Shown here: piece after piece, positions 8,528-39,463 of the stretch | Position numbering within the stretch: the stretch's first letter is position 1 | How the letters are laid out: each line of letters opens with the position of its first letter | Position numbers and translations under genes: made by a program | The notes under the pieces: generated by a model | What the model was told of the DNA's origin: nothing | The model's database searches: none | What the model saw: the letters and a program-made list of their open reading frames with translations, nothing else | Assembly: GCA_963716725.1 (NCBI GenBank) | Contig: CAVQUB010000005.1 | Coordinates: forward strand, 734,725 to 798,724 | Direction: 5' to 3' | From: an uncultured delta proteobacterium | GTDB taxonomy: Bacteria > Myxococcota_A > Polyangia > Polyangiales > Polyangiaceae | Length of the DNA stretch: 64,000 nt

Positions 8528-8529
8528 GA

Positions 8530-13735: not shown

Positions 13736-13768
13736 CGCGCGGGTGGGCCAGCGACTTGCGCGGATCAG

Positions 13769-22183: not shown

Positions 22184-22191
22184 TCAGGGCG

Positions 22192-22803
22192 TCAGCGTAG
22201 GTTCGGAGGAAGGCGCTTGACGAAGCGGCTGCCTTGGAGCGGGTACGTGAAGCCCTCCAGGTCGCGCAGGGCGCCGCGCCGCTTCTTCCCGAGCAGGCGC
22301 AACTGATACGCATCGACCGCGCCTACCCAGCGAAGGCAGTCCTCGCCGCGCAAGAACAAGAAATAGCGCCAGTAGTCCACGGAGGTGTAGACGAGGACAA
22401 CGTCAGCGTCGCCATCGCCGTCCAGGTCGCGATCGACACCGAACCCCGCTGGTGAACTCGGCCCAAGTTGCCCCTCCAAGATCGGCGCGTCCTCCAAGTC
22501 GGCGAACGTGGCGTGACCGTCCTCGGGGTGAAAAGCGTCCTTTGGTAGCTGGCCAAGAGTCTTCTCCAGCGCTTCGGAGGAACAGACGAGTACGGGAGGG
22601 GCAGCTTGTGCAGCGGGGGTCGGCGTGGATGGAGCGCTCGCTGGGCGTGGCCAGTCCGCCGCTTTGCTTCGAGCCTCTCGTATCGGCGCCGAGAGCGCCG
22701 CCGAGGGCGCAGGGGGGAGCGATGGTGTCACTCGCGCCCGAGTCGAAGACGATCCGGGAGAGCAGGCGACCGCCACTACGGCGAGCAGCGCGGCCTTGTA
22801 CAT
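22192..22803 (-). CDS. Hypothetical lipoprotein
   Basis: MYKAALLAVVAVAC lipobox, Pro/Ala linker, DLDGDGDAD motif. Confidence 0.6.
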   Translation of the reverse strand: MYKAALLAVVAVACSPGSSSTRARVTPSLPPAPSAALSAPIREARSKAADWPRPASAPSTPTPAAQAAPPVLVCSSEALEKTLGQLPKDAFHPEDGHATFADLEDAPILEGQLGPSSPAGFGVDRDLDGDGDADVVLVYTSVDYWRYFLFLRGEDCLRWVGAVDAYQLRLLGKKRRGALRDLEGFTYPLQGSRFVKRLPPNLR

Positions 22804-23029
22804 GATGCCAGACGGAACGCTTGACCGCTGCGTGGTCTTCCGCGATCTGAAAGTGGGCATTCGGTACGTTTCCCACCGCAAGCGCGATGCTGAGCGACAC
22901 GCGGATCTGCGCGGCATTCAGGTCTTGGTGCTCGCGAAGGGGCGCGATGGTCACGTGCGGCGCGAGCACGTGCGGCGCTTGGAAGCTGGCCGCTTGACGC
23001 GACCCCTGGTTGGAGTCCTAAAAGGGAAG

Positions 23030-24112: not shown

Positions 24113-24222
24113 CGAGCGCGCGCGGGCGGAGGGGACGCGTTGTGCCGGGGCTGGCGGCCACGCGTGCACCCAGGCTCGCGGCAGTCGTGGCTCAACCTCG
24201 CAGGAGGCGCTATGGTCTCACC

Positions 24223-24435
24223 GTGACGATCATCGATTGGAACGGAACGGACGTCCCCGAAGCCCTTCGCCATCTGCCTGCAGGACGGTACGCGATGGAA
24301 CCACTCGACGAGGCCCTCGAGCTGAGCGCGGACGAGGAAGAGGGTCTGGTGAAGGCACTGCAGTCCCTCCGCGAGGGCCGCGGTGTTCCCCACGATCACG
24401 CCTGCGCATTGTTGCGCCGGCGTGACGCACGGTGA
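24223..24435 (+). CDS. Small antitoxin-like (addiction-module type) protein
   Basis: GTG start; IDWNG.DVP..LR.LP.GRY, LS.DEEEGL..AL.SL..GRG. Confidence 0.45.
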   Translation: MTIIDWNGTDVPEALRHLPAGRYAMEPLDEALELSADEEEGLVKALQSLREGRGVPHDHACALLRRRDAR

Positions 24436-24773
24436 GCAGCTTCAGCTCGACGCCGCGGGTGAACTGCGCGCCGCCCGGTTTCTTCCGGACCAGGCCCGGG
24501 GTCGCGCAATGGCAGGCGGTCGCGGCGTCCGCGGCCGCGAAGAACGGTCGCGTCCACCATCGCGTGCGGCAGTGCCTCGCGGGCGGCTCGACCTGCGTCG
24601 CGAGCACCACGGCGGCGGTGCCGGCGTACGTAGTGCTCGACCTGCCGCCGGGAGGGTGCAACAGCGAGCAGTGCACCGCTTCGCAGCGGCGGAGCGGCTC
24701 GACCTGGCCTTGGCTGGCCGCCGGTCTCGCGCTCGCGAGCGCGCTCTTCCGGAGAGGCCGGAGGCGCGCGTGA
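24432..24773 (+). pseudogene. Probable C-terminal fragment of a MYXO-CTERM-type protein
   Basis: Ends GGC...C, hydrophobic WPWLAAGLALASALF and RRGRRRA; no signal peptide. Confidence 0.45.
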
Positions 24774-25717
24774 GGCTCTTCGCGGTGCTGCTGCTCGCAC
24801 TGGTCGCGGCGTGCGGCGGGCAGACCGCGGAGGATCGCCCGCGCTCCCCCTGGCCCGAGAGCGGCTGCCCGCCCAGCCACGAGCTGCGCGACGGCCGCTG
24901 CACGATGCGCGAGATCCACGTGCCGGGTGGAGGCTTCATGATGGGCCGAGGCTTCTGTCCGAAGTCGGGATCCGAAAAGACGCCGCCGGACCTCGAGTGC
25001 CCGTTCGCTGACCAGCCGCACTGGGTCGAGGTCGCTCCGTTCTGGGTGGACGTGACGCTGTTCACCTACGCGGACTACGGCAAGCTCGGCTTGCCCTACG
25101 ACGACGCCGCGGACTGTCCGAACCGCGAGATCGAGTGCGCCGCGCCGCTGGCGTATATGCCGGCCGATGGCGGCCTTGGCGGCCTTCTCGGTAGCCCCCC
25201 AGGGAATCTGTCCGACACAGACCTGGCATGTTCCCAACACGGAAAGCGAGCGATCCGCGAGGCTGAGTGGGAGTGGCTGGCCACCTGGGGCGGCACCCGA
25301 ACCTATCCCTGGGGGGAGGCGGAGCCGACCTGCGAGCGCGGGCACATCGATTCATCGGAGTGTCGCCTGGTCAACCCGGTCGAGTGGTACACGGGCATGG
25401 ACGTTCCGGTTTCGAAAGTGGCCTCCCACCTGCCCACCCCGGAGGGCGTGTACGATCTCACGGGCGGTGGCGGCGAATGGGTGCTGCCTTCGCCCAGTGT
25501 GGTCTACACGGACGGATACCCGGAGCCGATGGCGAAGCTCCCCGCCTGCCCGAATGGGCAGAATAACTGCGGGTGGATTTCAGGCGGCTGGGTCGCCGGA
25601 CTGCGCGGAGGAGCAACCGACAGCCCCGCGCGCCACTTCGGAGGTGCATATCGAGGCGCGAACCGGAGCCCCCGCAAACTCCCAACCGGCTTCCGCTGCG
25701 TACGCCCCGCGCTCTGA
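24770..25717 (+). CDS. Formylglycine-generating enzyme/SUMF1-domain lipoprotein
   Basis: LVAAC lipobox, VPGGGF.MG, REAEWE, YPWG, GVYDL.G...EW, RGG, GFRC. Confidence 0.85.
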   Translation: MRLFAVLLLALVAACGGQTAEDRPRSPWPESGCPPSHELRDGRCTMREIHVPGGGFMMGRGFCPKSGSEKTPPDLECPFADQPHWVEVAPFWVDVTLFTYADYGKLGLPYDDAADCPNREIECAAPLAYMPADGGLGGLLGSPPGNLSDTDLACSQHGKRAIREAEWEWLATWGGTRTYPWGEAEPTCERGHIDSSECRLVNPVEWYTGMDVPVSKVASHLPTPEGVYDLTGGGGEWVLPSPSVVYTDGYPEPMAKLPACPNGQNNCGWISGGWVAGLRGGATDSPARHFGGAYRGANRSPRKLPTGFRCVRPAL

Positions 25718-25776
25718 GCCGGCGTCGGGATCGGCTTGCCCGATCTACTTCGACGCCTCGGTCTCCCCCCCCACCA

Positions 25777-25845
25777 TCACGATCCCGGTCGCTTCACCGG
25801 CTTCTCCAAACACAGCCGCGCCGCGGGCTTGAAACCTGCTCTCTG
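25777..25845 (-). repeat. Displaced copy 1 of the GNAT gene 3' end (QRAGFKPAARLCLEKPVKRPGS*)
   Basis: Codon-for-codon match to 36654-36722, with synonymous changes and G>S at the last codon. Confidence 0.9.
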
Positions 25846-25982
25846 TCTTTGTGCCTCCCCTCGTCTCGCTTCGCTCGCCGGTCCCCTCCTTGCCCGGTGC
25901 GCGCGAGCGAAAGTGTCTTGCCGAGATCACGGGCGCAGTGCCGATGCTCGCGCGCACGCGGACGGAGGGGACGCGTTGTTCC
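25846..25982. repeat. Non-coding arm, copy 1 (about 137 bp)
   Basis: Three differences from 26879-27014 by eye; contains a gcgcgagc...gctcgcgc inverted repeat and the GGAGGGGACGCGTTG core. Confidence 0.9.
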
Positions 25983-26054
25983 GTGCCCGACGCTCTGTCG
26001 AGCTCCGGCGCTCGCCCGGTGGACTTGCCATGCGACCGCGCCTATCGTCCCGTC

Positions 26055-26750
26055 ATGTGGGTACGCTCTAGAAACATCTTCGCGTTCTGTGCGGCCGGTG
26101 TTGTGGCGTGCACCGCTGCGGATCGTCCCATCGTTGCTGGGCCCGCAACCACGGGTGCGCCGTCGCCGGACGCTGCGCCCCCGACTCCCAGCAGGGATAC
26201 CGCCGACGCCGGCGGGATCCCTGCCCCATCGCCGGGGATTGCTCTGGCCGACTTTCCGCGCGCGGTCGCCGGATTTCCATTCGGCCAGACGGAGGCCCAA
26301 TTCCGCGCCGCATGCGAAGCCGCCGGCGGTGGGGGCACTTCGTCCCCCGGCGAAGCGACATGCTCGAAGGCGCCCGTTCCCGTGGACTTGGACCTGGGGT
26401 TCAAGGTCCTCACCGTGACCGCGATCTTCTGCGGCGGCACGGTGTGTGAGATCGGGCTGGGCGGCGTCGCGGATCCCGAGACCGCCCGCAGGGCGGCATC
26501 GCGGCTGGAGGGGAAGTACGGCCGGCCTGGTGATCCCGGACCGAACGGGCAGTGCGACGTGGACTGGCAGGACGCGCGGTTCCGGCGGATGTGGATATGG
26601 CCGGGGACTCAGCGCAAAGTCGAGGGCGCGTTGCTTCTCGTGTATTCGTGCTTGGACTCCCTGGTCCCGACCTTGCACGTCTTCTACCAGAACGAACGGG
26701 CCGTGGAGCGTCGGCGGGGCGACATGTCGGAACGCCAGCGAAACTGGTAG
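26055..26750 (+). CDS. Hypothetical Cys-containing lipoprotein
   Basis: GVVAC lipobox, Pro linker, P.AVAGF.FG, L.GKYG.P motif. Confidence 0.65.
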   Translation: MWVRSRNIFAFCAAGVVACTAADRPIVAGPATTGAPSPDAAPPTPSRDTADAGGIPAPSPGIALADFPRAVAGFPFGQTEAQFRAACEAAGGGGTSSPGEATCSKAPVPVDLDLGFKVLTVTAIFCGGTVCEIGLGGVADPETARRAASRLEGKYGRPGDPGPNGQCDVDWQDARFRRMWIWPGTQRKVEGALLLVYSCLDSLVPTLHVFYQNERAVERRRGDMSERQRNW

Positions 26751-26809
26751 CGCAAAGTCGTCCGTGCCAACGCACGGCGCCTGGGCGTAAGGGTCCTCGT
26801 TCCGCCGCC

Positions 26810-26878
26810 CTACCCCCCCGGCCGCTTCACAGCCTTCTCCAAGCACAATCTCGCCGCGGGCTTGAAGCCGGCCCGCTG
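26810..26878 (-). repeat. Displaced copy 2 of the GNAT gene 3' end (QRAGFKPAARLCLEKAVKRPGG*)
   Basis: 69 nt, same first codon and same stop position as the resident tail. Confidence 0.9.
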
Positions 26879-27014
26879 TCTTTGTGCCTCCCCTCATCTC
26901 GCTTCGCTCGCCGTCCCCTCCTTGCCCGGCGCGCGCGAGCGAAAGTGTCTTGCCGAGATCACGGGCGCAGTGCCGATGCTCGCGCGCACGCGGACGGAGG
27001 GGACGCGTTGTTCC
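26879..27014. repeat. Non-coding arm, copy 2
   Basis: Near-identical to 25846-25982. Confidence 0.9.
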
Positions 27015-27020
27015 AGACGG

Positions 27021-27136
27021 GAGCGCAACTCGTGAGTTGTCGATATCGATCGCGGCACCTGGGACAGAGCCGGGCACCCTGCGCGGTTGCGCGAGTTCGG
27101 CGCTGATCAAGGTGCGGCGGTTCTCGCTGATCGCTT
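27021..27136 (-). repeat. Repeat D copy 1 (coding-derived, AISENRRTLISAELAQPRRVPGSVPGAAIDID)
   Basis: Homologous to 28822-28939 and 32533-32596. Confidence 0.85.
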
Positions 27137-27506
27137 ACACCAAGCGAACAGGACGTTGAGTGCAACGGTGTGACTCGCCTTCAGTTCGGTACCGAATTCC
27201 CGCGACAGTCCCAGCGCCGGCAAGCGATCCCTGAACCCCCTCGATCCCGCCTCGCTGAGCGGCTGAATTTCTTCCGTTCGCGATCGGCGCTCAACGAGAG
27301 CTGAAACCAGTCGGTTGGGGAACAAGGACGTTCCCTCTCGCCCCCGCCAGTGGCCAGCGACCCTTTCGCTGCCGCCGACCCCGGCCGAGCCGCTGCGAGC
27401 AGGACCACGAGACCGGTCACAGTGCTTTGCCAGGGGTCTGCACCATCGCCCGAGTCGGGGAGGTCACCATCGTCCGACGCAATCCTCGCCGAACAGCGCG
27501 CGAACA

Positions 27507-28316
27507 CTACATCCCAGCGCTTCTCATCTCACGGTCGGCGTCATCCAGGGACTTTTGAGCGTTACCACACATGCGCTCGGTGGGTTCAACGCATGCCGAC
27601 GTGCAGATTCGGACCAAGTAGGCGCCACTCCTCAATGCGCTGACCCCTGGGATTGTGAGCGCCATCTTGTCGAGCTCACTCCGAATCGGGTCGACTTTCT
27701 GCCACTCCGAACGCGCGAGTTCCATACACTCGACTGTGTGGCTGTAGTCTTCGCTCCACTTCGCGAAGCGTGCTCGGGCGACGATCTGGCGAAGGTCGCC
27801 GAGGAGCACCCTCGCGCGCTTGCGTGCGGCACCCTCGTGCACATCGCGGATCTTTTTCAACTCCGCCCGTTCAGCTGACGAATCGGCAGCGCTGGTGAGG
27901 ACTTCAACTGCATCGTCGTCACAAATGCCGCTGGAAAAACATTCGCTGCGGAGGCGGTCTCGGCGCTGTTCGCGTGACATTGTTCGTGCTGACTCGAGAG
28001 TGAGCGCCGGAGGTTCCGGCGGCTCGGCCGGCGTTGAATTCACCGGTGAAGATGCGAACCCGCTCCGGCTGCGCGCGATGCGAACCCCGAGGCCGGCAAC
28101 CTCCGGACGCCGATCTGATTCACAAGACTGCGACGCCCGCGTCAACGCCGTGTCGGCTTCCTCAAATTTCCCAGAAGCGGCTGCCAAGTGCCCGGCGTTC
28201 AGACTTCGTTGGCACTCGTTTTCAGCGGTCCTGCCCGATGAATAGACGATGGCGGCGGCCACGAACAGCGCCCCCAGGGCGATGCCCACGCCCACCCAGA
28301 TGCCAAGTCGGTCCAC
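27507..28316 (-). CDS. Hypothetical membrane-anchored Cys-containing protein
   Basis: GGAGGAG RBS 7 nt before the GTG at 28316; N-terminal TM segment and a TPR-like helix pair. Confidence 0.55.
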   Translation of the reverse strand: MDRLGIWVGVGIALGALFVAAAIVYSSGRTAENECQRSLNAGHLAAASGKFEEADTALTRASQSCESDRRPEVAGLGVRIARSRSGFASSPVNSTPAEPPEPPALTLESARTMSREQRRDRLRSECFSSGICDDDAVEVLTSAADSSAERAELKKIRDVHEGAARKRARVLLGDLRQIVARARFAKWSEDYSHTVECMELARSEWQKVDPIRSELDKMALTIPGVSALRSGAYLVRICTSACVEPTERMCGNAQKSLDDADREMRSAGM

Positions 28317-28772
28317 GACAATTCTCCTCCCAGAACCTCTGCAATCATACAGCAGGATCGGAGGACCTCGGACGCGGGCACTCGCGGAAAGAAAACGCGG
28401 CCCGAATGGGGCGCGACACCGCAAAAAGGCGTCGCAACTCCCTCCGCCGCGGGGACGGCAGCCGGGCGTGCCCCGCTCGGGTCCGCCCAACGTCGGAGGC
28501 AAGCCAAACCGAGGCGTTTGGGCAAGGCCAGGCGCGTGGGGCGCGGGGGAAGAAGTCGACAGATCACGTGTCGTGCGCCGTGCCTGACCCGCGACGGACC
28601 ACGCAGGCTTGCTGGACCTCGGCCGCGCATCCGCAACCGGCGTGCCTGCGCTCTACGCCTAGGACTATGGCAACTCCGCGTGTGCACTGGGGTGGCGAAG
28701 CCACCTTCGCCGGTGGTGATCGCCGCTCCGGTCGCGGCGCCTCGGTCCGTCTCGCCAAGCGTACGACACCGG

Positions 28773-28814
28773 CGGCCTCACCGGCTGCTCCAGACACAAC
28801 CGCGCGGCGGGCTT
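28773..28814 (-). repeat. Displaced copy 3 of the GNAT 3' end (KPAARLCLEQPVRP), shorter and more diverged
   Basis: aagcccgccgcgcggttgtgtctggagcagccggtgaggccg on the minus strand. Confidence 0.8.
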
Positions 28815-28821
28815 CGGTGCT

Positions 28822-28939
28822 GAGCGCAACCCCTGTGTCATCGATGTCGATTGCGGCACCTGGCACAGAGCCGGGCATCTTGCGCGGTTGCGCGAGCTCG
28901 ACGCTGATCAAGGTGCGGCGGTTCTCGCTAATAGCTTCC
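28822..28939 (-). repeat. Repeat D copy 2
   Basis: EAISENRRTLISVELAQPRKMPGSVPGAAIDIDD; many third-position differences from copy 1. Confidence 0.85.
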
Positions 28940-28980
28940 AGTGTCCGGCAGGAAGCAGATCTGCCATACTTAGAAGCGCG

Positions 28981-29940
28981 ATGGCGCGTTCGGATCTTCT
29001 CCTCAATCTCGTCCGAGCAGGGTCCCTTGGGGACCAGGTCGGCTTTCGGCGCACGGTCGAGGCGCTGATCGCAGAGGAGCGAGAACGCCAGCATCACGTC
29101 GTCGCGGACCGGCTCGTGGAGTACCTTGCGAACAAGGGCAATGGTGCGCGTGGCCCGTCCGCAGATGCGCCCGTCGGCTCCTACGACGAACGGCATCCGG
29201 AGCGCGTCCTGGCCGACCTCGTTCTTCCCGAAACCGTCTCCAACGCGTGCACGGAGCTTGTCGAGGAACAACAGCGTGCGGACCTGCTTCGGTCGCATGC
29301 GATCGAGCCTCGCCACCGGATCCTTCTTGCGGGTCCCCCCGGCAACGGGAAGACGTCTCTCGCGGAGGCGCTGGCTGGCGAGCTCGCGTTGCCCTTGCTC
29401 GTCGTTCGCTACGACGGCGTGATCGGGAGCTTTCTCGGGGAGACTGCCGTTCGGTTGGCGCGTCTCATGGAGCACGTTCGGTCTCGTCGCTGCGTCGTCT
29501 TCTTCGACGAGTTCGACGCGATTGGGAAAGAGCGTGGAGACGAGCACGAGACGGGGGAGATCAAGCGCGTGGTGAGCTCGCTTCTGCTCAACATCGACGC
29601 ACTCCCCTCGTACGTCGTCGTGGTGACGGCCACCAATCATCCCGAACTCCTCGACCGCGCGGTGTGGCGTCGGTTCCAGCTTCGCTTGGAGCTCCCGCCG
29701 CCGAACCGAGAGGCCATTGCCGAGTGGCTCCGAAGGTTCGAACAGCGAAGTGCCCTAAAGTTGGGGCTCACGGCAAAGCAAATCGACGAGCATCTCACCC
29801 GCCTCAGTTTCGCGGAGCTCGAGGAGTTCTGCACCGACGTTCTTCGACGCCTCGTGCTGCAGGGCGCGAAGCGCGACGCGAAGTCCGTGGTGGCATCGCG
29901 CCTGTCGCAGCTGTCGGCTCGGTTTCAGGTTCGGAAGTAG
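28981..29940 (+). CDS. AAA+ ATPase, IetA-like partner of the S8 peptidase
   Basis: MARSDLL..L, GPPGNGKT, FFDEFDAIGKERGD..E.GE.KRVV, ATNH..LLDRAVWRRF. Confidence 0.9.
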   Translation: MARSDLLLNLVRAGSLGDQVGFRRTVEALIAEERERQHHVVADRLVEYLANKGNGARGPSADAPVGSYDERHPERVLADLVLPETVSNACTELVEEQQRADLLRSHAIEPRHRILLAGPPGNGKTSLAEALAGELALPLLVVRYDGVIGSFLGETAVRLARLMEHVRSRRCVVFFDEFDAIGKERGDEHETGEIKRVVSSLLLNIDALPSYVVVVTATNHPELLDRAVWRRFQLRLELPPPNREAIAEWLRRFEQRSALKLGLTAKQIDEHLTRLSFAELEEFCTDVLRRLVLQGAKRDAKSVVASRLSQLSARFQVRK

Positions 29941-29943
29941 GAG

Positions 29944-32502
29944 ATGCCGTCGCCGTCGCGACCGCTTCTCATTTCGCCGCCGGGGTCGAGGCAAGCCTTC
30001 ACTCCGCAACCGCCGCGGGGCGGCGGACCAAGCAATCCAAAGAAGGCGCGGCAGGTCGAGCTCCTTGCGCCGAAGTTCACTGAGCTGCAGCAGGCGCTCG
30101 CCGCACGTCGGGGTGCGCTTCGGGGCGACGCAGCAGGGGTGGCTCTCGAGCAGGTGCTGGTGTTCGAGACGAACGGTCCCGTGAAAGACCTTTGCGACAC
30201 GGTTGCGAAGACGCCCGGTCTCGAATGGATGGCCGACGAGGACGTCCGCGACCTCGCGCCCGACGAGGACTTCTTCGTCGCAGACAAACCTGACAAGCTG
30301 GTCAACGCGCAGCTCTACCTCGTGCTCTTCAACCAACAGGCGGTGGAGCAGCTGTTGTCCCTTTGGCGCTTGTGGAGCACCAATGCTCGGCTGCCGGAGG
30401 AGCACCGCGGCTGGCTCGACGTCTTCCGACGGTTGCGCGACATCCGGCGCTGGGGCGTTCGCGATCGCCTCGAGGAGACCGGCGTCCTCGCCTACTGGCG
30501 CGATCGTGTCGAAGCCGGCTTCGAGACCGTCGGTGTCGAGATCGACCTCTGGTTTCGGCAGACCGAGCAGCGGTCGATGGCGGAGGGGCGCATTCGCGAT
30601 TTCGTCACGCGCGCGAACGGCCAGGTCCTGGCGAGCTGCAGGATCGACGAGATCGCGTACCACTCGCTCGTGTGCAAGCTCCCAATCGCGGCGGTCCAGG
30701 GCATGCTCGACAACCCCGAGGTCGAGCTTCTGCAGTGTGACGAGGTTCGTCTTGTTCGTCCCATTGGACAGGTCGGCGCCCCCATCGTCGCGGACGAGCC
30801 GGAGCAAGAGGAAGAAGCCGGTGGAGGCCAGGAAAGCGAGCTCAGCGATCCTCTCGTCGCACTCCTGGATGGCCTGCCGCTAGAGAACCACCGACGGCTT
30901 GCCGGCCGCCTCGTGGTCGACGACCCAGACGAATGGGCTGAGACCTACCCCGTGGCGAGCCGCTGTCACGGCACGGCGATGGCGTCGCTGATCCTGCACG
31001 GCGACCTGGGCGCGAGCGAGGAGCCCGCGCGCCAACGTCTTTACGTTCGGCCGATCCTGCGCCCGGACAGCTTTGGCGGACGATCGGAGCAAGCGCCCGA
31101 GGATCGCTCTTGGGTCGATCTGATCCATCGAGCGGTTCGCCGCGTGGTTGCGGGTGACGGGAACCTGCCCCCAGCCGCGCCGTCGGTGCGCGTGATCAGT
31201 CTGTCGGTCGGGGATCCATACCAGCCGTTCATCCGATCGATGAGCCCGCTCGCGAAACTGCTGGATTGGCTCTCGTGGCGGTATCGCGTCCTGTTCATCG
31301 TCAGTGCCGGAAATCATCGGGCGCCGATCATCGTTTCCGGACGCGCGGACGACGTGAAGCCTGAGACGATCGTCGCGGCTGTTGCCGGCGGGAAGCGACA
31401 CCGTCGAATTTTGTCGCCGGCGGAGGCGGTGAATGCTCTCTCGGTCGGCGCGACCGCAGAGGACGCTAGCGGGACGTGGAAGCCCCGCGCTTCGAACGAA
31501 CACGACCTTGCGCTGCCCGACGGACTCCCGAGTCCGATCAGCGGCCTGGGCCGCGGATATCGACGCGCCGTGAAGCCCGATGTTCTCGCGCCGGGCGGAC
31601 GTGTCGTGTTCCTCGCCGGTGACGGCGCGAACGGCGAAACCCGGTTCGAGCTTGCCGAGCCGCGCCCACGTATCCCGCCCGGCCACCGGGTCGCCGCCCC
31701 GAGCGCAACGCAGGGCGACCTGTCCGGTGTTCGGTACTCGGCCGGAACCAGCAACGCGGCGGCGTTGGTCAGTCGAGCGGCGCTCCGCATCGCCGACGCA
31801 CTACGAGACCTCGGCGAACAACCGAATGCGGCGCAGCTCGAACGAGTACCGATGGCGCTATGGCTGCGAACGCTCCTGGCCCACAGCGCGAGCTGGTCAT
31901 CCGAAGCAAGCAAGCTGGCGGAGCGCGCCCTCCGAACGGAGAGCAACAAGCACACGTTCACCGACGAGGTGTCGGCGCTCCTCGGGTTCGGTACGATTCG
32001 TCCCGAGCGCGTGGTCACTTGCACGGAGGAGCGCGCCACCATCCTCGTAGGCGGCGACATCGCTGCGGACGAGCGATACGTGCATCGCGTCCCGCTGCCA
32101 CCGTCATTGAACGCGCACACGGCGTGGCGACGCCTCACCGTAACCCTGAGCTGGTTCTCACCCATCAACCCGACGCATCGGAAGTATCGTCGCGCCGCCC
32201 TGTGGTTTGAGGCTCCCGGCCAGCGGGAATTGTTGGTGCAGCGTCGCGGTGTCGACTGGCAGGCCGTGAGGCGGGGGACGCTGCAGCATGAGGTCCTCGA
32301 GGGAGCCCGCGGAGCCATCAACATCCAAGCCGATGGCCATCTGGAGATCCCCGTGACGTGTCTCGCTGAAGCGGGCTTGCTCGACGAACGCCTCCCGTAC
32401 GCGATGGCCGTTACGCTGGAGGTCGCTCCCGGCGTGAACACGAAGATCTACGACGAGGTTCGCGCACGCATTGCGCCGCGCGTGTCGGTCCGTCGCGCGT
32501 AG
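29944..32502 (+). CDS. S8 (subtilisin-like) serine peptidase, IetS-like
   Basis: Triad LLDG / HGTAMAS / GTSNAA, SAGN oxyanion motif, RGTLQHE, PYA.AVTLE; no signal peptide; 3 nt after the ATPase. Confidence 0.9.
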   Translation: MPSPSRPLLISPPGSRQAFTPQPPRGGGPSNPKKARQVELLAPKFTELQQALAARRGALRGDAAGVALEQVLVFETNGPVKDLCDTVAKTPGLEWMADEDVRDLAPDEDFFVADKPDKLVNAQLYLVLFNQQAVEQLLSLWRLWSTNARLPEEHRGWLDVFRRLRDIRRWGVRDRLEETGVLAYWRDRVEAGFETVGVEIDLWFRQTEQRSMAEGRIRDFVTRANGQVLASCRIDEIAYHSLVCKLPIAAVQGMLDNPEVELLQCDEVRLVRPIGQVGAPIVADEPEQEEEAGGGQESELSDPLVALLDGLPLENHRRLAGRLVVDDPDEWAETYPVASRCHGTAMASLILHGDLGASEEPARQRLYVRPILRPDSFGGRSEQAPEDRSWVDLIHRAVRRVVAGDGNLPPAAPSVRVISLSVGDPYQPFIRSMSPLAKLLDWLSWRYRVLFIVSAGNHRAPIIVSGRADDVKPETIVAAVAGGKRHRRILSPAEAVNALSVGATAEDASGTWKPRASNEHDLALPDGLPSPISGLGRGYRRAVKPDVLAPGGRVVFLAGDGANGETRFELAEPRPRIPPGHRVAAPSATQGDLSGVRYSAGTSNAAALVSRAALRIADALRDLGEQPNAAQLERVPMALWLRTLLAHSASWSSEASKLAERALRTESNKHTFTDEVSALLGFGTIRPERVVTCTEERATILVGGDIAADERYVHRVPLPPSLNAHTAWRRLTVTLSWFSPINPTHRKYRRAALWFEAPGQRELLVQRRGVDWQAVRRGTLQHEVLEGARGAINIQADGHLEIPVTCLAEAGLLDERLPYAMAVTLEVAPGVNTKIYDEVRARIAPRVSVRRA

Positions 32503-32532
32503 GAGCGTCCAGCTGCCAAGACCGACCGAAGC

Positions 32533-32596
32533 TCAGGGCACGCGCCGCGGTTCGAGGTGCGTGATCAATGTGAGGCGGTTCTCGCTGATCGCTTCC
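32533..32596 (-). repeat. Repeat D copy 3 (EAISENRLTLITHLEPRRVP*)
   Basis: Same boundary (gcttcc on +) as copy 2. Confidence 0.75.
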
Positions 32597-32642
32597 GGAT
32601 GTGCACAGTGGTCAGCGCCGACGGAACTGCACCAGGTGCCTC

Positions 32643-32696
32643 GCGGGCGCCTTGCCGAATCTCGCGCCCGCGCGGGCGGAGGGGACGCGTTGCTCC
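32643..32696. repeat. Diverged partial copy of the non-coding arm (core also at 24122-24142)
   Basis: gcgggcgccttgccgaatctcgcgcccgcgcgggcggaggggacgcgttgctcc versus acgggcgcagtgccgatgctcgcgcgcacgcggacggaggggacgcgttgttcc. Confidence 0.75.
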
Positions 32697-33248
32697 GCGC
32701 CCGATGCATGCTCGTTCCCGATGGCATGCCGCTGTGTCGTCCGCGACCGCGCTCGCTTCCACGACCGCCTCGTGAGCTTCCGAGCACACGGCTGCCGCCA
32801 GCGCCGCGGCCGGGCCCCGCCCAAGCGGCGCACGAGGCGCGCCAAGCACTTTGGTTTCACCGATGGGTGTCTCGACGCCGCGGCGCACGCGCGTCGCAAG
32901 CGCCACGCAGCCCCCCCAATGTTGGTCAGCTTGGCGCTCGGCGCTGCCGCGGCCGAGGCAGCCGTGCTCATCGGGCGAGCCATCGCGCGTCTTCGGCGGC
33001 CTGCGGGCACTCGACTCCAGTCTTGACCGATGTCATATTGTTCGGGAGTTTTGCGGAGTACATTGATCGGACAATGAGGTCCACCGACAGTGCCGGGCGT
33101 GCCCCCCCCCCATCCTCTATGGCCCGGAATACGGCGGGAATGGCGGGAATGCAGGACCACAAGGATGGCTGATCCGGGTTGGGTACGACACCTACAACCT
33201 CGGCTCGGTCGTACCTTAGGGCGCGGCCATCGCGTCGAGAGGTGCGGC

Positions 33249-34813
33249 ATGGCAGATGACCTGGGCCATCGCAGGGTCTCTCGGGGCAGGTTGAGGGCGT
33301 TGGCTGGCGTCGCTGTTGCGCTGGGCGCTCTCGGCAGTTCGAAGGCAGCCCAAGCGGTGAACTGTCCGACAGACGGCGTGACGTGGAGCGCCGACATCCC
33401 AGCGAAGATCACGGTCAAGGACCACCCGAACTTCCCGGGCACCACTGCCTACATCCACAACCAAGATTACCTCTGGTACCTCTCGGTGCCCGCCGTCGTC
33501 AACAACGTCAAGGTTCACTGGTCCAGCTTCAACATCGAGGACAGCCCCCAACATCCGCCAGCCTGGGACTACTTCGCGGTCATTGGCGGCTCGAACTATG
33601 GGACTGTTCTCTACTACGACGGGAATCGCGGCGGCCTGTGGGAGGCTCCTTGGGGGCTGCCCGCTCCGTCGCAGCGGTACTGGCTCATATGGCACACAGA
33701 CCCGAGCGTCTCGATCGCTGGCGGCCACCCGTACATCGACAAGGTCCAGGTTCGATGCAATCCGATGGCCGTCGCCCAACCCTACGCGATGAGCCTCCAG
33801 CAAGAGATGCAAGGGATTCTTTTCGGCACCGGGCAGACGACGCACTTCTTCGTCGATGTTCCGGCAAATAGGCCGCTCTTTCTGACGCTGGACGGTCATC
33901 CCGCAAACGCCGACTTCGACCTGTACGCGGACACAACCAACCGGCTTCCGGGGCCGGGCGCGCAATGGTCGAGCACGAGCGCTGCTGCCAGTGAGTCGAT
34001 TCTGACTTGGTCCTTCGCGAGCACGAAGCGAATCTACGTAACGGCGAAGGTTCGTTCGTGCTTCATCCGTACGCTCCGAAATACACGGGCGTCGCCAGGA
34101 AGGTCTGCGCGCAGCAGCAGGTGGGACCCGTGCTCGGTTCGGCGTGGACCAAATTCGTGAACGACTTGAAACGTACATCGATGCGGATGCTGCAAGCGAC
34201 GAATGGCAGCCTGTTCATTTCGACGTGGAACGTCCATCAGATCCCCCTGGTGTACAGGCCTGATGGATATCCAAAAAACTGGTGCAACGAGATCGACTCC
34301 AGCTGCGAGATTTGCGTGAACCACCCGCTGAGCGATAGCCCATGTGCTGATCAGTCAAACGGCGGCGTCAGCCGGATGCCCGGTTTCAACTGCGTCTCAC
34401 AACACGACTCCGACTGGCAGTCGGTCGTCAACGTCCATGAGCAGGGGCACAGCAAATTGGGCCTCGATGATGAGTACAACTGGTGTGGCGCGAATGGCAT
34501 CAACTGGATTTGTCCGACATGTGGCTGCGGCGCGTTCTGCGGTCACGGCCTGATGAATGGTCCCGCGACGCATGTCTTCTGCACCGGGTCTTCGCCGAGC
34601 AATAACCGACACTGTGTGGACGGGCTGCCCGGAGTGGTGAAGAACCCGGACATCTCTACGCCCTGCGTCTACTACGGCTCCAGCTGGTATCAACTCTCGA
34701 ACTACGCGCCCTACTATGACCCGCCCCCTGGGCCTAACCCGGACGCGGCCTATGATCTTGTTTTCAACGCAAGCGCTCTGTCGAGGGCGTCCGTCTGGTA
34801 CTACAACCTCTGA
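33249..34813 (+). CDS. Secreted protein with CUB-like and PPC-like domains plus zinc-metalloprotease motif; frameshift near 34040
   Basis: Signal (AAQA), FNIED..WDY, NADFDLY. The second frame continues NGEGSFVL...HEQGHSKLGLDDEY (HExxH...DEY) with a Cys-rich tail. Confidence 0.6.
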
Positions 34814-34840
34814 CCACGGCGTTCGAACGAGGAGAACCCA

Positions 34841-35767
34841 ATGACCGCTCCACTCTCGACCCGGACAATTCGCTGCGCGCTTCTGGTCGCGACGTCCACC
34901 GCGTGCCAGAGCGCTGAAGAACCGAGACACGAAAAGCCGGGGGTGCAACCCCCGACCCCGCAAACACAAGAAGCGAACCAGGGGCCGCTGCGGGTGTTTC
35001 CTTCGGATTTTGCGCCAGGCAAGACCAATGTGCCGGTGGAAGCCCGACTATCGTTCTCGATGGAGCGCACTTCCGGCGAGCCGCTTGATCAGAGTGCGAC
35101 ACTGGCATCCCATGCCGTGTTCCGGCACGAATCCTCCGGAAAGGAAGTTCCTGCAAAGGTGGAGGCATCTGACGAGAAGGGCAATCCTGCCAGCGCGTTC
35201 TTCTACTTCGCGCCGACCACCCTTCTCCAGCCTGATGCCTGGTATCAACTCGAGATCTCCCCGTCATCAGAAATCCAAGTGTTGGATGGCGACGGCCAGG
35301 TGGATACCTCCGCGATCTGGAAGCGCCCGTTCTTCACCGGAAGTGCCCCGCACGTCGCGCGTGTCGAGGTCATTCCCAAGTCGAATCAAGTTCGCGTGGA
35401 GTTCAGCGAACCGGTGGAGGCAACGAACCTGGTCGCGAGCAAGGTGTTGGTGGCGGCCGGCCAGAGCGCTGCCAAATGCCTGTACCTGGCGGGGGACTGC
35501 GTGACCGGGACGAGCGCGGACGGACCTATTCTCCGAGACCTGGTCTTTCAACTCACCGGGCCCAGCGGGAAGACACCAGTAATTGAAGTGGTTGTACCGT
35601 CCGCCCTCGAGGGATCTCCGCGTACCGTCGGCGAAGGCAAGCAGGTGGCGGGAACGCCCTGGGCTCAGCTTGCGGGTGCGGGCGAGGTGAAGTTCCTCAC
35701 CGCCGCACGCGGAAAATGGAGCGCTTGCCAGCAAGGGGCGGCGGAATGTTGGTCATACGAACGATAA
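34841..35767 (+). CDS. Lipoprotein with Ig-like (Big_5-type) domains
   Basis: STAC lipobox, P..G.TNVP, F.P...L.P...Y, VEFSEPV. Confidence 0.65.
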   Translation: MTAPLSTRTIRCALLVATSTACQSAEEPRHEKPGVQPPTPQTQEANQGPLRVFPSDFAPGKTNVPVEARLSFSMERTSGEPLDQSATLASHAVFRHESSGKEVPAKVEASDEKGNPASAFFYFAPTTLLQPDAWYQLEISPSSEIQVLDGDGQVDTSAIWKRPFFTGSAPHVARVEVIPKSNQVRVEFSEPVEATNLVASKVLVAAGQSAAKCLYLAGDCVTGTSADGPILRDLVFQLTGPSGKTPVIEVVVPSALEGSPRTVGEGKQVAGTPWAQLAGAGEVKFLTAARGKWSACQQGAAECWSYER

Positions 35768-36063
35768 TCGTGCTGGCGCTCTTGTGTTTGCCGCTAGGCG
35801 GATGTTCGAGCGAGCCGCAGGAGCCAACCTGCGCCGCCTGCCAGAAGGAGTACGCGTCCTGTTCGTTCCCGAACCTGCAGGAGGCCCTGGAGTTTCAGAT
35901 CCGATCGCGCGACGCGCTTGGATGTTCAGGCGTCGTGCAGGGCGCCAGCGTGCGATTGGAGTGTGACCCGTTGAGGTTCTGCGTGGATTCCGTTGCGACT
36001 TGTTACCCCGCCACGTATTCCGACGGAGTTCTGCACTTCGGCCAAGGGAATGCGTGCGGGTGA
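35746..36063 (+). CDS. Small Cys-rich lipoprotein
   Basis: LPLGGC lipobox followed by 8 further Cys. Confidence 0.55.
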   Translation: MLVIRTIIVLALLCLPLGGCSSEPQEPTCAACQKEYASCSFPNLQEALEFQIRSRDALGCSGVVQGASVRLECDPLRFCVDSVATCYPATYSDGVLHFGQGNACG

Positions 36064-36112
36064 CGAGACCGTGGCGCGCGTCATTCCTTGTCGCCGCTGA
36101 TGGAACGGTGAT

Positions 36113-36240
36113 CTAGCCGGGGCTCGCGCCCTGCAGGCAATACAGAAAGAAATCCGGGCAACAGTCCAGGTTCGCGACGCAGATCACGTCGCAGTAACAG
36201 CCGGCGCCTTGCGCTTCGGGCGATCCACATTTGCCGCCGC
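36113..36240 (-). pseudogene. 3' fragment encoding a somatomedin-B-like domain
   Basis: GKCG......GCYCDVICVANLDCCPDFFLYC. Confidence 0.6.
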
Positions 36241-36709
36241 GGTCGCCGACAATCTGCCGGAGTACTGCGTGCGGCTCACGACGACGGATCTGCGCAGCGG
36301 CAACAAGACCGAGTCTGCCGACTTGTGCGCTGCTTCGAGCGGCAACGCTCCGGCAGATCCCTCGATGGGCTGGGAGGGCGCGGTTGGCACCTGCAACGCA
36401 CCGCCACACCCCGACTTGCTCACGCTGTGGTGCGCCGGGCACAGCGCCGCCGTGGAGTGTGGCGGGCCCGGAAGCGGCGGGAGCCCCGGAAGCGGCGGCA
36501 GCCCCGGCGGTGGTGGGAGCGGCGCGAGCCCGGGACCGTCGTCCGACTCCGGGGCATGCGCCAGCACTCGGTCAGCCAAGCTGCCCGTCTCGGCGCTGTG
36601 GTGGCTGGCGGTCGCCGCCGGTGCTTGGATCGCCCGTCGCCGCGCCCCCGCGCTTACCCCCCCGGTCGCTTCACCGGTTTCTCCAAACACAACCGCGCCG
36701 CGGGTTTGA
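36240..36709 (+). pseudogene. C-terminal fragment of a MYXO-CTERM-type protein
   Basis: EYCVRL..., Gly/Ser linker, DSGAC, hydrophobic segment, RRR; lacks an N-terminus. Confidence 0.55.
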
Positions 36710-37142
36710 AACCTGCCCGTTGGAAGAACTTGATCAGGTCGACCTGATCCCACTCGATCTGCGTCTGCAGGCGCTCGATGCCGAGGGCTGACAAGTTCAT
36801 TTCGAGCTGGCGCATCAGCGCGGCGCCGACGTGTTGGCCTGCGAACGCCGGCGAGACGCCGAGCGAGTCGAGGATGGCGACGGGCTCGGGCTGGCCGAAC
36901 TCGCCGTAGTACAGGCGGCCCATCAAGAAGCCCGCGGGCTCGCCCTTGACGAAGGCCGCGAGCGAGATGCGCACGCCGGTGTCCTTGGCGACCTCGCCCA
37001 GCTTCACCTTGTAGTACTCGCGGCGCTGCTTGCCGCTGTGCTGGCTGTCGATGCGAATGACCCAGTCCAGGTCTTTGGCGTCGAGGTTTCTGACCTCGAC
37101 GGAATCGGTCTCGAGAGTCCCGGGTTGCTCCTGCATGCTCAT
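36654..37142 (-). CDS. GNAT acetyltransferase of the benzoyl-CoA reductase cluster (BadL-like)
   Basis: VRNL...DL, GEFG, ILDSLGVSPAFAGQHVGAAL, FF...GF.PA.RL.LE; GAGGA RBS; follows bcrD. Confidence 0.8.
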   Translation of the reverse strand: MSMQEQPGTLETDSVEVRNLDAKDLDWVIRIDSQHSGKQRREYYKVKLGEVAKDTGVRISLAAFVKGEPAGFLMGRLYYGEFGQPEPVAILDSLGVSPAFAGQHVGAALMRQLEMNLSALGIERLQTQIEWDQVDLIKFFQRAGFKPAARLCLEKPVKRPGG

Positions 37143-37159
37143 GTCGAATCCTCCACTCC

Positions 37160-38053
37160 TCAAACTGTCGCCTGGGCCAGCACGGCGGCCGCGCGACCCT
37201 TCTTCTCGAGCTGCTCGTAGCGGAACGCGCCGAGCAACGCCGCGCCGATGGCGCCGGCCAAGATGCCGTCCGAGAAGGTCTTGATCACCACCTCGGCGTG
37301 CTGCTTCTTGCTCTTCTTGGTCTTCTCTTCGGCGAAGAGCTGCTCGATGGCCGCCACCATGCCGACGTCCTTCGAGAGGCCGCCGGTCACGACCACGTTG
37401 CCCTCGGCGCCGACCGCGCGCAGGAGCTGCACCAGCCGACCCGCGATGCTCAGGTGGATGCCCTTCAAGATGTCCGAGGTGCTGATGCCGCGGGCCACCA
37501 TGTTGATCACGTCGGTCTCGGCCAGCACCGCGCAGATGCTGGAGACCTTCTCGGGGCTCTCGCTCTGTTTGCTGAGCTCGCCCACGTCGTCCAGGGGCAC
37601 GCCCAGGTAGCGCGCGATGTTCTCCAGGAACTGCCCGCTGCCGCTGGCGCACTGGCTGGTCATGCGGTGCGAGAGCACGCGCCCGTCTTCGTTCATTCTG
37701 AGCCCGCGGGCGTGAAGGCCGCCGATGTCGAGGGCCGCTCGGGCCGTCGGATCGAGGAAGAGCGCGCCGCGCGCGTGGGTCGTCATGCTGTAGAAGTGGC
37801 CGGTGCGGAAGCCGACCGCGTCGCCGTCGCCGGTGGACGCGACGTAGTCGAAGTCCTTGGGTCCGACTCCCGCGGCGGCGCAGGCCTCTTCGAAGCCTGC
37901 GCTGACCACGTCCGCCACTTTGCGCCGCCGGATGCGCTGCACGCTTTGGGCGAGCAGCTTGGCGTCAGCGCCGGCGCGGCTGCGCATGATGGCGACTTTG
38001 ACGGCGCTCGAGCCGGGATCGATCCCGACGGTCAGGTGCTCACGTGTTGACAT
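37160..38053 (-). CDS. bcrD: Benzoyl-CoA reductase subunit D
   Basis: GIDPGS..VK, GHFYSMTTHARGA, MTSQCASGSGQFLENIARYLG, VSSICAVLAETDVINMV. Confidence 0.9.
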   Translation of the reverse strand: MSTREHLTVGIDPGSSAVKVAIMRSRAGADAKLLAQSVQRIRRRKVADVVSAGFEEACAAAGVGPKDFDYVASTGDGDAVGFRTGHFYSMTTHARGALFLDPTARAALDIGGLHARGLRMNEDGRVLSHRMTSQCASGSGQFLENIARYLGVPLDDVGELSKQSESPEKVSSICAVLAETDVINMVARGISTSDILKGIHLSIAGRLVQLLRAVGAEGNVVVTGGLSKDVGMVAAIEQLFAEEKTKKSKKQHAEVVIKTFSDGILAGAIGAALLGAFRYEQLEKKGRAAAVLAQATV

Positions 38054-38065
38054 CGATCTGGCTCC

Positions 38066-39463
38066 TCACTGTGCGGGCGCCGCGCTGACCGCGGCTCCGG
38101 CTCGAACCTTCTCTACGAACGTCGGCAGAATTGCCGGCCGGCCCGCCTCGAGATCGTCGACGCCGAAGAGCGCCGCGCCCAGGGCGCCCATGTAGATGCT
38201 GTCCGCGTGGGCGTTCAGCACCGTCTCCTTGTCGTAGTTCTCGTCCACCAGCTCACGCAGCACCTTGGTGGCCATCGGGTTCTTGCAGACCCCACCGGTG
38301 AAGGTGAACTCGTTCATGATGCCGCCCGATCGCGCGAGCAGTGACATCGCGCGCAGCATGATCGACCGGTGCAGGCCCGCCAAGATGTCCTCTCGCCGCT
38401 CGCCCAGGCCGAGCCGCTCGCGCAGCTCTGCGCCCGCGAACACGGTGCAGGTGCTGTTGACCTTCACCACGCGCTGGGCGCCCAGGGCCAGGGGACCGAG
38501 CTCGTGCAGGCCGAGGTTCAGCTCGTCGGCGATGTAGCCGAGGTAGCGCCCGCAGCCAGCCGCGCAGCGATCGTTCATCTGGAAGCTGGTCACCACTCCG
38601 TGCTCGTCGACCTGAATGGCCTTGGTGTCCTGCCCGCCGATGTCCAGCACCGTGCGCGTGCCGGGGAACACCCGGTGCGCGCCGCGGCCGTGGCACAAGA
38701 TCTCGCTCTTCACCGCTTGCTTGGGGAAGGGCAGGGTCTGACGCCCGTAGCCGGTGCCGACGAAGGACATCTCGTCGATGGGTTGGCTCGCGGCGACGTC
38801 GACGGCCTCGAGCAACGCGCCTGCGGCGGTGCCCGAGACGTCGGCGGTCAGGCGCCGCGCGGCGCGACGCAAGATGGCTCCGAAGTCCCGGGTCTGAAGC
38901 CGCGTCTCGACGTCGAGGATGGCGCGATCGAAGACGCCGGTGAGCCGCTCGTAGTTGACCGCGCCCTTGCTCGCGGCCGCCACCTTCTCGGCGGCGCTCA
39001 TGTAGCCGGCCGCGGCCAAATCCCGGAAGAAGTCGCTCCTGCGGGCGCTGGTGTCGCCGCCGAAAAGGCCGGGCGCCTCCGCCTTCATCGACTCGACGAC
39101 GTCACGAATGGCCGGCGAGAGGTTCTTGCGGTCGCTGATGAAGGACAGGCTTTTCAGGACCTTCTCCATCTCTTCGTTCAGCTCGACGAGCTGATCGAAA
39201 TAGGTCTCGAGCCGGTACGCCTCGTGCAAGGCGTGTTCGCTCTCCTGCGCGCTCTTGCCCAGGGCGGCCGCGCGCCGATCGAGCTCGCGCTCGAGCATGG
39301 TGAAGCGGGCCGCGGTGAGCGCCTCTTCCCGCGCGACGGCGCAGGCCACCTCGTAGTTGGAGCGGCTGTTGGTGATGCCCTTGCCCACGATGCGGCGTTG
39401 CTCGTCGACCAAGACGGCCTTCGTGGTGGTGCTGCCCAGATCGACGCCGACGACGACCTTCAT
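38066..39463 (-). CDS. bcrA: Benzoyl-CoA reductase subunit A
   Basis: GVDLGSTTTKAV, GITNSRSNY, GTGYGR, SEILCHG.GA, DIGGQDTK, FQMNDRCAAGCGRYL, STCTVFA. Confidence 0.92.
   Translation of the reverse strand: MKVVVGVDLGSTTTKAVLVDEQRRIVGKGITNSRSNYEVACAVAREEALTAARFTMLERELDRRAAALGKSAQESEHALHEAYRLETYFDQLVELNEEMEKVLKSLSFISDRKNLSPAIRDVVESMKAEAPGLFGGDTSARRSDFFRDLAAAGYMSAAEKVAAASKGAVNYERLTGVFDRAILDVETRLQTRDFGAILRRAARRLTADVSGTAAGALLEAVDVAASQPIDEMSFVGTGYGRQTLPFPKQAVKSEILCHGRGAHRVFPGTRTVLDIGGQDTKAIQVDEHGVVTSFQMNDRCAAGCGRYLGYIADELNLGLHELGPLALGAQRVVKVNSTCTVFAGAELRERLGLGERREDILAGLHRSIMLRAMSLLARSGGIMNEFTFTGGVCKNPMATKVLRELVDENYDKETVLNAHADSIYMGALGAALFGVDDLEAGRPAILPTFVEKVRAGAAVSAAPAQ

Follow-up and report, generated by a model that had tools for sequence, protein, structure and literature searches.

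The window considered here is a stretch of 64,000 nucleotides (nt) on contig C5 of a metagenome-assembled genome of the Polyangiaceae (G000; 35 contigs, 7.9 Mb, 84% complete). It contains a GNAT acetyltransferase gene behind which differing cargo genes are stacked, separated by displaced copies of the 3′-end ("tail") of that same gene. Each full displaced copy follows a conserved sequence of 137 nt, hereafter called the arm, which is probably one end of an IS91-family transposon. Six genomes of the same genus (G001-G006) served for comparison, and searches for the arm and for the integron integrase IntI covered 41 genomes. Read along the minus strand from the gene, the order is GNAT, a Somatomedin_B-like open reading frame (ORF) with a surface-protein module, a truncated arm, a repeat called D5, the IetA/IetS pair, a second D5, a partial GNAT tail, a membrane protein gene, a third D5, arm B, tail B, a lipoprotein gene, arm A and tail A. 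The individual features are as follows.

36654-37142, minus strand: GNAT acetyltransferase gene, host of the array (Pfam Acetyltransf_1, 5e-12); its current tail is 36654-36722
32834-36653, no strand assigned: gene-proximal cargo (Pfam Big_5 and Somatomedin_B, weak M64), including the next two entries
36113-36442, minus strand: small Somatomedin_B-like ORF (Pfam)
33090-36063, plus strand: convergent three-gene surface-protein module (Pfam Big_5, weak M64)
32641-32833, minus strand: truncated arm (arm positions 1-56 at 32641-32696) with a 135-nt upstream extension (BLAST, nhmmer)
32495-32594, no strand assigned: D5 repeat copy 3, inverse to the arms and similar to the terminus on the oriIS side of the main IS91-type element
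29944-32502, plus strand: IetS, anti-phage defence (PADLOC, 2.4e-295)
28888-29940, plus strand: IetA, anti-phage defence (PADLOC, 2.7e-143); D5 copies flank the IetA/IetS pair
28822-28940, no strand assigned: D5 repeat copy 2, 87% identical to copy 1 over 119 nt
28773-28814, minus strand: partial degenerate GNAT tail from codon K146, stop not in place (BLAST)
27507-28502, minus strand: cargo, predicted membrane protein (ORF and codon-position GC)
27021-27139, no strand assigned: D5 repeat copy 1, 5 nt off the inner side of arm B
26879-27015, minus strand: arm B (nhmmer, 2e-32; covariance model, 135.6 bits)
26810-26878, minus strand: displaced GNAT tail B (BLAST, translation)
25851-26750, plus strand: cargo, predicted lipoprotein, likely start near 26055 (ORF, codon-position GC, signal-peptide-like start by eye)
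25846-25982, minus strand: arm A (nhmmer, 1e-34; covariance model, 148.3 bits)
25777-25845, minus strand: displaced GNAT tail A, the most distal (BLAST, translation)
24113-24146, minus strand: arm remnant, first 34 nt (BLAST, 88% over 34 nt, E 3e-5)

The GNAT protein ends in QRAGFKPAARLCLEKPVKRPGG, directly followed by the stop codon. The initial annotation of this DNA had reported that the last 22 codons of the gene recur at 26810-26878, 25777-25845 and in part at 28773-28814, and that the same 137-nt arm precedes each full copy. Both statements were confirmed. A BLAST search of the 69-nt tail against the whole genome returns the tail itself and three places in the window, all on the same strand (25784-25839, 94.6% over 56 nt; 26811-26878, 83.8% over 68 nt; 28769-28814, 82.6% over 46 nt), with nothing else in 7.9 Mb. 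Over their 137 nt, arms A and B share 97.8% identity. The partial tail begins directly past the TTC codon of the tail and has a D5 repeat, not an arm, before it. The gene itself closes a conserved operon, which also encodes an activator ATPase of the BcrAD/BadFG type and a fused 2-hydroxyacyl-CoA dehydratase-like protein (37160-41107).

Tails A and B are both in frame with a stop codon, B ending in EKAVKRPGG and A in EKPVKRPGS. The previously counted 12 differences over their first 63 nt were reproduced; overall 16 of 69 positions differ. By the Nei-Gojobori method the gene and tail B are separated by 11 differences (10 synonymous and 1 nonsynonymous), the gene and tail A by 9 (7 and 2) and the two displaced tails by 14 (11 and 3). 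The proportion of synonymous sites that differ (pS) is 0.40-0.63 among these three tails and its nonsynonymous counterpart stands to it at a ratio (pN/pS) of 0.03-0.10. The contrast that had first been drawn between nucleotide and amino acid changes thus reappears in the proposed dN/dS check, as differences almost all at synonymous sites. From this pattern the tails appear to have been shaped as coding sequence in separate lineages. Translation of the displaced tails from a Shine-Dalgarno-like motif in the arm was considered and rejected, the reading frames being inconsistent between loci.

A profile search of the genome reveals 13 full and 8 partial arms, lying in same-orientation clusters on contigs C1, C5 (twice), C8, C32, C6, C12, C13 and C34 and spaced 0.8-6 kb apart within arrays. 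The alignment of 15 copies is characterized by a long imperfect hairpin and a small stem closing a GCG(N)AGC loop, with compensatory changes at 9 of the 39 predicted pairs. It is this covariation that supports the structure, since one arm folded as DNA is no more stable than shuffled sequence (z = -1.67). The conserved end reads GAGGGGAGGCAG(G/C) and is followed by 4-6 variable nucleotides and then by host sequence. Matches to the arm covariance model number 28 in G000, 18 in G001, 25 in G002, 29 in G003, 3 in G004, 12 in G005 and 1 in G006; 10 of the 41 genomes have a match, including all six congeners and, weakly, three other genera. A pattern scan of public contigs gave three stretches from two uncultured Myxococcales/Polyangiaceae assemblies, too few to describe a distribution.

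Judged by GC skew over ±100 kb, the locally C-rich strand carries twelve of the 13 full arms (seven of eight loci). The skew itself is small (0.004-0.025), and the hint of a bias with respect to the direction of replication, such as single-strand transposons show, is suggestive only. Further families of dispersed repeats, 50-170 nt in length, surround the arms on C1, C13, C8, C32, C5 and C4 (for example C1:160396-160533 and C13:139030-139201), and one of these families translates as a sequence ending in LGRPWEVPGGASP.

The initial annotation had proposed a BLAST search to see whether the arm always abuts displaced gene tails. The arm proves to be a dispersed repeat, yet one that adjoins displaced gene segments at many genes. 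An identified segment follows eight of the 13 full arms in the genome: the GNAT tail twice, the tail of a C1 peptidase four times, an ArsA-like piece and an activator tail. The Cys-rich peptidase tail, whose intact gene ends at C5:35609, is joined to its four arms at two junction points, and its copies carry 9 synonymous and 2 nonsynonymous codon changes. The ArsA-like piece consists of 44 internal codons, with the intact copy 9 kb away. On contig C6, what comes after the arm is the 3′-terminal 20 codons of the activator gene located before GNAT, together with the GNAT start; the activator gene is single-copy and located on C5. The flanks of the other five full arms recur elsewhere in the genome, although their parent gene could not be named.

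The same is true of the relatives. The eight fetched loci contain 24 arms, and behind 20 of these lies a host segment with another copy in the same locus; the exceptions are all three arms of locus L046 and one of L047. Loci L042-L045 possess an extra copy of the segment upstream of the first arm, with no arm ahead of it, and in arrays L044 and L048 the host genes are antisense to the arm. The single fixed insertion point envisaged at first is contradicted by junctions that vary: they fall at GNAT Q141, GNAT D32 and activator R278, and at three different places in one gene of array L042 (G003).

All six congeners carry GNAT, at 86-89% identity in five and 69% in the sixth, with the upstream gene order retained, and similarity to G000 ends at the GNAT stop codon in every pairwise comparison. 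What lies beyond differs between genomes, as a comparison of cargo across relatives had been expected to reveal. G005 has one cassette of 1.2 kb, containing a PIN-domain toxin gene and a likely antitoxin and followed by an arm and a tail from codon Q141; the copied segment continues at least 80 nt beyond the GNAT stop codon. In G002 a three-gene cassette precedes an arm joined to GNAT codon 32, and this 131-codon copy (codons 32-162) differs from the working gene at 25 positions (21.5 synonymous and 3.5 nonsynonymous). No arm or second tail is present in the 40, 40 and 18 kb fetched from G001, G003 and G004, respectively (about 38, 32 and 14 kb downstream of GNAT).

The identity of the arm is indicated by its neighbors in the relatives. 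Three identically scoring arm matches in G002 belong to a repeated unit whose 1801-bp core encodes a protein of 516 amino acids (aa); this protein and another of 534 aa match Y2_Tnp (4.8e-21) and Zn_Tnp_IS91 (2e-17). Matches to this transposase family number 29 in G000, 15 in G001, 38 in G002, 59 in G003 and 4 in G005, none of them in the window, and many are found inside arm clusters (in G000, for example, at C5:10-35 kb and on C12, C13 and C34). Comparison of coordinates places an arm beside tnpA at the following sites.

G003, C21 near 1,231 kb: arm upstream of and antisense to tnpA, 239 nt to the tnpA start
G003, C21 near 1,244 kb: arm upstream of and antisense to tnpA, 238 nt to the tnpA start
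G003, C21 near 1,251 kb: arm upstream of and antisense to tnpA, 208 nt to the tnpA start
G002, C2 near 1,475 kb: arm upstream of and antisense to tnpA, 245 nt to the tnpA start
G003, C15, C14 and C18: arm beside a 5′-truncated tnpA

Well under one such adjacency is expected by chance, by our estimate, and the spacing is unchanged between two copies of the element that are only 66% identical in tnpA. An arm upstream of tnpA at a retained spacing agrees with the layout given in a published account of IS91, where terIS, a single imperfect subterminal palindrome by the cleavage site, lies upstream of tnpA, and oriIS, with an essential CTTG/GTTC tetranucleotide, lies downstream (PMC13181058). The initial annotation had proposed looking for a recombinase gene linked to the arm elsewhere; what stands beside arms in G003 and G002 is an IS91-family tnpA. 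A gene for a DUF559 protein (Vsr-like endonuclease domain) is repeatedly found just inside the arm, between arm and tnpA (L052:10021-10611 in G002), with related DNA in L044, L048, L041, L050 and at C10:11959-12486 of G000. In IS91 this place is taken by orf121, and the DUF559 protein may assist in recognition of the end as an accessory factor.

At 13 independent junctions the host tetranucleotide immediately before the copied segment is CTTC three times, GTTC twice and GTAC, CATC, CCAC, TAAC, CCTC, GGGC, GGTA and TACT once each. GTTC or CTTC therefore occurs at 5 of 13 junctions compared with a genome background of 1.0% (P ~1e-7, the motif being in part picked post hoc); GTTC alone, which was the prior expectation, accounts for two. 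The first seven junctions had pointed to a strict TTC target, which the next six did not bear out.

Movement of the arm together with host DNA is seen in G002, where a unit of 2794 bp consists of an ori end, tnpA, the DUF559 gene, the arm and 148 nt of host DNA. Two sites carry the whole unit and a third carries its right-hand part, all at 100% identity; the right flanks differ at all three sites and the left flanks differ for the two full copies. The 148 nt derive from a host gene which, in G001, stands at the head of an arm array. Since this unit occurs at sites with different flanks, arm and host segment move within an IS91-type unit, which also explains the ectopic arm-activator copy on C6. 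G003 contains a comparable unit of 3154 bp, with 1060 nt past the arm, in two copies.

Cargo moves as well. It is linked to the arm downstream of it, cargo and arm being duplicated together in L041, and a DUF5615 toxin-antitoxin cassette is 90% identical between arrays of G001 and G003 that have different host segments. The small cassettes of the relatives carry ParE, PIN, DUF5615 and Uma2 genes; no recombinase was found among the 82 cassette ORFs scanned from them. Cargo ORFs have a lower GC content at third codon positions (GC3), and filtering the cassette ORFs by GC3 was unhelpful. One displaced copy in L042 has 2 differences from its gene in the first ~140 nt and is 15-20% different beyond, a mosaic which indicates that homologous exchange acts on displaced copies. 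Nearly identical arms A and B beside diverged tails would fit exchange within the arms.

We conclude, with a probability of roughly 0.6, that the stack behind GNAT consists of transposase-less cassettes bounded by ends of the IS91 family (rolling-circle, HUH Y2) and mobilised in trans. The arm would be the terIS-side end, with its long imperfect hairpin, a GCGAAGC-type mini-hairpin and some 20 nt to the terminus. An element ending in it would enter a host gene just 3′ of a (G/C)TTC-like tetranucleotide, and one-ended transposition reading through beyond the arm would then give units of arm plus adjoining host segment. According to the same account, termination of IS91 fails in 1-14% of events, so that adjacent DNA is carried along (PMC13181058). 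Should such a unit land beside an intact allele, the gene would keep a whole 3′-end, with the other copy placed behind the arm. If this recurred with units of diverged lineages, the order GNAT, cargo, arm, tail, cargo, arm, tail would result. Integration next to the intact gene could be brought about either by transposase cleavage at the same tetranucleotide or by homologous recombination through the captured segment or the arms. The transposase would come from elsewhere in the genome, from among its 29 matches. We infer both that the arm is a functional terminator and that the transposase-less cassettes are mobilised in trans.

The initial annotation had described an array of differing cargo split by displaced GNAT tails behind a conserved arm, and this description is supported. 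Its explanation by serial replacement of the gene end was essentially right, apart from the fixed site and the integron-like character ascribed to that site. More tentatively, and with the odds somewhat against it, one may envisage a cassette system throughout the genus, in which a trans-acting IS91-family HUH transposase moves units defined only by a terminal hairpin and a transduced piece of the neighboring host gene. As each unit would bring along the fitting rest of that gene, it could settle within a core gene or at its edge without breaking it, and such units would build integron-like stacks of defence, toxin-antitoxin and surface genes at many core genes.

Several observations weigh against the explanation by IS91-family ends. 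Eight of the 13 junctions do not follow GTTC or CTTC. Only about 7 of 27 arms in G003 have a tnpA nearby by coordinate comparison, and most have none; the window contains no remnant of a Y2 transposase. The identical, most recently active 1801-bp copies stop 68 nt upstream of tnpA, short of any arm, and the repeated units of 2794 and 3154 bp continue through it, so that the arm has never been observed to stop transposition. If the units carried an ori end, one would be expected after each proximal tail, but no such end was recognised there, and the D5 repeats, which are ori-like, run opposite to the arms. In the 69-nt GNAT tails the identical runs are too short for ordinary RecA exchange between the present copies, and the tails have diverged too far for recombination with one another. 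The same cargo is found behind different host segments, where a simple model in which the element carries its own tail predicts otherwise. Finally, joints diagnostic of circles or empty sites, which it had been proposed to look for, did not appear in public contigs from four runs, although contigs so short and shallow are uninformative either way.

In an unlikely alternative, a tyrosine recombinase supplied in trans (IntI or an integrase of phage type) would use the arm as its attachment site, and cassettes would integrate site-specifically where arm and tail meet. The genome does encode a full IntI (TIGR02249, 443.8 bits against a cut-off of 265; C8:394170-395114), a partial one on C7 and 19 Phage_integrase matches. 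On C8, intI and two arms are 5-13 kb apart; the arm folds into a hairpin about as large as an attC; the cargo of toxin-antitoxin pairs and small unknown ORFs is integron-like; and IntI matches are present in each of the five congeners (G001-G005) that have at least three arm matches. The true attC sites of the genome (GCCTAAC...GTTATGC, ~160 nt; arrays on C8, C7 and C34) are nevertheless of another family, and neither of the RYYYAAC...GTTRRRY boxes is seen in the arm alignment (by eye, with no attC model used); with an arm unrelated in sequence to these sites, the integron-like attachment site of the initial annotation is not supported. The C8 arms are on the opposite side of intI from its array. 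None of the five IntI matches in G003, the genome richest in arm matches (29), is complete and uninterrupted. IntI is matched in 10 of the 41 genomes, among them members of four genera, three of these genera being without a match to the arm. Junctions vary within one gene, and their host side shows a bias to an IS91-type tetranucleotide with no shared core. The absence of an integrase from the window, noted at the outset, extends to the whole of C5: the tyrosine-recombinase matches all lie on other contigs, C5 has no Phage_integrase match, and TIGR02249 exceeds its cut-off only on C8 and C7.

Canonical integrons outside the window occupy C8:385331-395114, where intI faces its attC array with its 3′-end, and C7:148218-158215; an attC cluster lacking an integrase lies in C34:138754-152609, with half-arm motifs within its cassettes, ~130-170 nt ahead of the attC sites.

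It is also improbable that the cassettes have no mobility at all, each insertion having duplicated the adjoining host segment in place and the working gene having later been replaced by diverged alleles. Arms followed by a nearby host copy regardless of gene or orientation (the 20 of 24 in the loci of the relatives), the same cargo with different host segments, and mosaic identity as the trace of homologous exchange on these copies are what this proposal would lead one to expect. We know of no transposition mechanism giving duplications of 40-400 bp, however, and three mutually diverged GNAT tails would require allelic replacement between each insertion. A long target-site duplication was rejected on pN/pS, neutral decay of one copy predicting a ratio of ~0.5 where 0.03-0.10 is observed. 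Moreover, arm and host segment travel in a transposing unit and are found away from the parent gene, and IS91-family elements are described as making no target duplication (PMC13181058).

That the repeats are an assembly artefact is very hard to credit: the assembly is in 35 contigs and 84% complete, 137-nt repeats at 98% identity can mislead assemblers, and the public contigs over the region are short and shallow, but five further genomes of the genus, including one assembled into 5 contigs, have the same architecture, the tails differ mutually at too many sites to be collapsed or duplicated reads, and contigs from other runs cross two arm-tail junctions. These contigs come from four runs over 21000-39500 (mostly <1.3 kb, depth 2-7; one run possibly from the source sample); X1 (25238-25881) crosses the junction of tail A and arm A, and X6 (26592-26911) that of tail B and arm B, which speaks weakly against misassembly. 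One public-contig joint mirrors the arm-activator copy on C6; the joints have short sides. The region is represented in public runs from several studies. Among other mobile elements, RAYT/REP was set aside because the two Y1_Tnp matches are not near any arm, and IS200/IS605, IS110 bridge RNA, Xer/dif modules and retrons because none accounts for a duplicated host segment.

The cassette genes of the window are in mixed orientation, the lipoprotein gene being on the other strand. The three genes at 33090-36063 have counterparts, in unchanged order and with 29-34% amino acid identity, in the cassette that comes first behind GNAT in G002. Two overlapping ORFs of 356 and 268 aa at 33090-34813 jointly match a single 535-aa ORF of G002, which suggests that this gene for an M64-like secreted protein has been split by a frameshift or an assembly error. 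The 135-nt extension of the truncated arm is common only to the arm copy on C6. For D5 copy 3, the minus strand of the window ends in CTCCTACGCGC, resembling the element terminus. IetA and IetS have Pfam AAA and Peptidase_S8 domains. Neither the membrane protein (27507-28502) nor the lipoprotein (25851-26750) has a Pfam or PADLOC match, and the DNA of both is unmatched in five congeners beyond arm and tail.

The arm remnant at 24113-24146 lies past tail A, between a leucine-rich repeat lipoprotein gene and a gene with an FGE-sulfatase domain (22625-25717), neither of which is syntenic in the congeners. The cassette stack may once have extended further in this direction, and these two genes may be older cassettes. 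As the DNA from 6000 to 25776 is not syntenic in five congeners, the far boundary of the variable region could not be placed. Scans of the window for tRNA genes and Rfam families were empty, so that it offers no tRNA target and no known RNA family.

The published elements closest to these cassettes are IS91, IS801 and IS1294. A Y2 HUH transposase with a zinc-binding domain is shared, here encoded in the genome and its relatives outside the window, as is read-through carrying adjacent DNA; the resemblance may extend to two unlike ends, the palindrome-bearing one upstream of tnpA, and to insertion beside GTTC-type tetranucleotides. Unlike in those elements, most ends here are orphaned from a transposase and bound other cargo, the end is far larger, at 137 nt and with two hairpins, and the ends adjoin duplicated pieces of host genes and are piled in arrays at particular genes. 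In the class 1 integrons linked to ISCR1, an IS91-like element and cargo lie between two copies of the 3′-conserved segment (3′-CS), and the likeness is cargo between two copies of a conserved host segment (PMC3575428). The differences are that the duplicated segment here comes from the end of a protein-coding gene of the chromosome and this gene stays intact, that many host genes are involved with repeated stacking, and that most units have no transposase. Toleman et al. in 2006 reportedly proposed that a circular product with part of the 3′-CS is rescued by homologous recombination.

Integron arrays are similar in having short cassettes in one orientation, each closing in a folded repeat of ~130 nt, an enzyme encoded elsewhere and cargo rich in toxin-antitoxin and defence genes. 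They differ in their R′/R″ boxes and in having attI/intI at the array; in the present arrays the gene orientation is mixed, the repeat is distinct from the attC family of the genome, and each repeat is followed by a host gene fragment. At icd, displaced recoded gene ends in direct repeat mark the successive insertions of phage 21 and e14. Displaced recoded ends similarly mark tandem accretion in these elements and in tycheposons at tRNA genes. Those elements carry an integrase and use a single crossover site, unlike the cassettes here, which lack an integrase, have variable junctions, can be <1 kb in length and possess the conserved end of a rolling-circle transposon. In the literature on integrons, tycheposons and IS91 (including myxobacteria and non-autonomous elements; subscription journals were mostly outside coverage) the present arrangement was not found described. 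Two known kinds, IS91/ISCR gene capture and gene-end-replacing insertion, come together in it.

The question raised is whether the end of a rolling-circle transposon together with a transduced host segment can direct scarless insertion into coding genes. The arm model locates such arrays, and the displaced gene ends in them record the order and sources of past acquisitions. The cassette system envisaged more tentatively would be a recombinase-free analogue of the integron with coding genes as landing sites. If the main explanation is true, IS91/ISCR gene capture, known mainly from antibiotic resistance, would also account for stacks of defence and toxin-antitoxin genes on the chromosomes of environmental bacteria. 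It would also provide a mechanism for the hypervariable accessory regions in the large genomes of myxobacteria.

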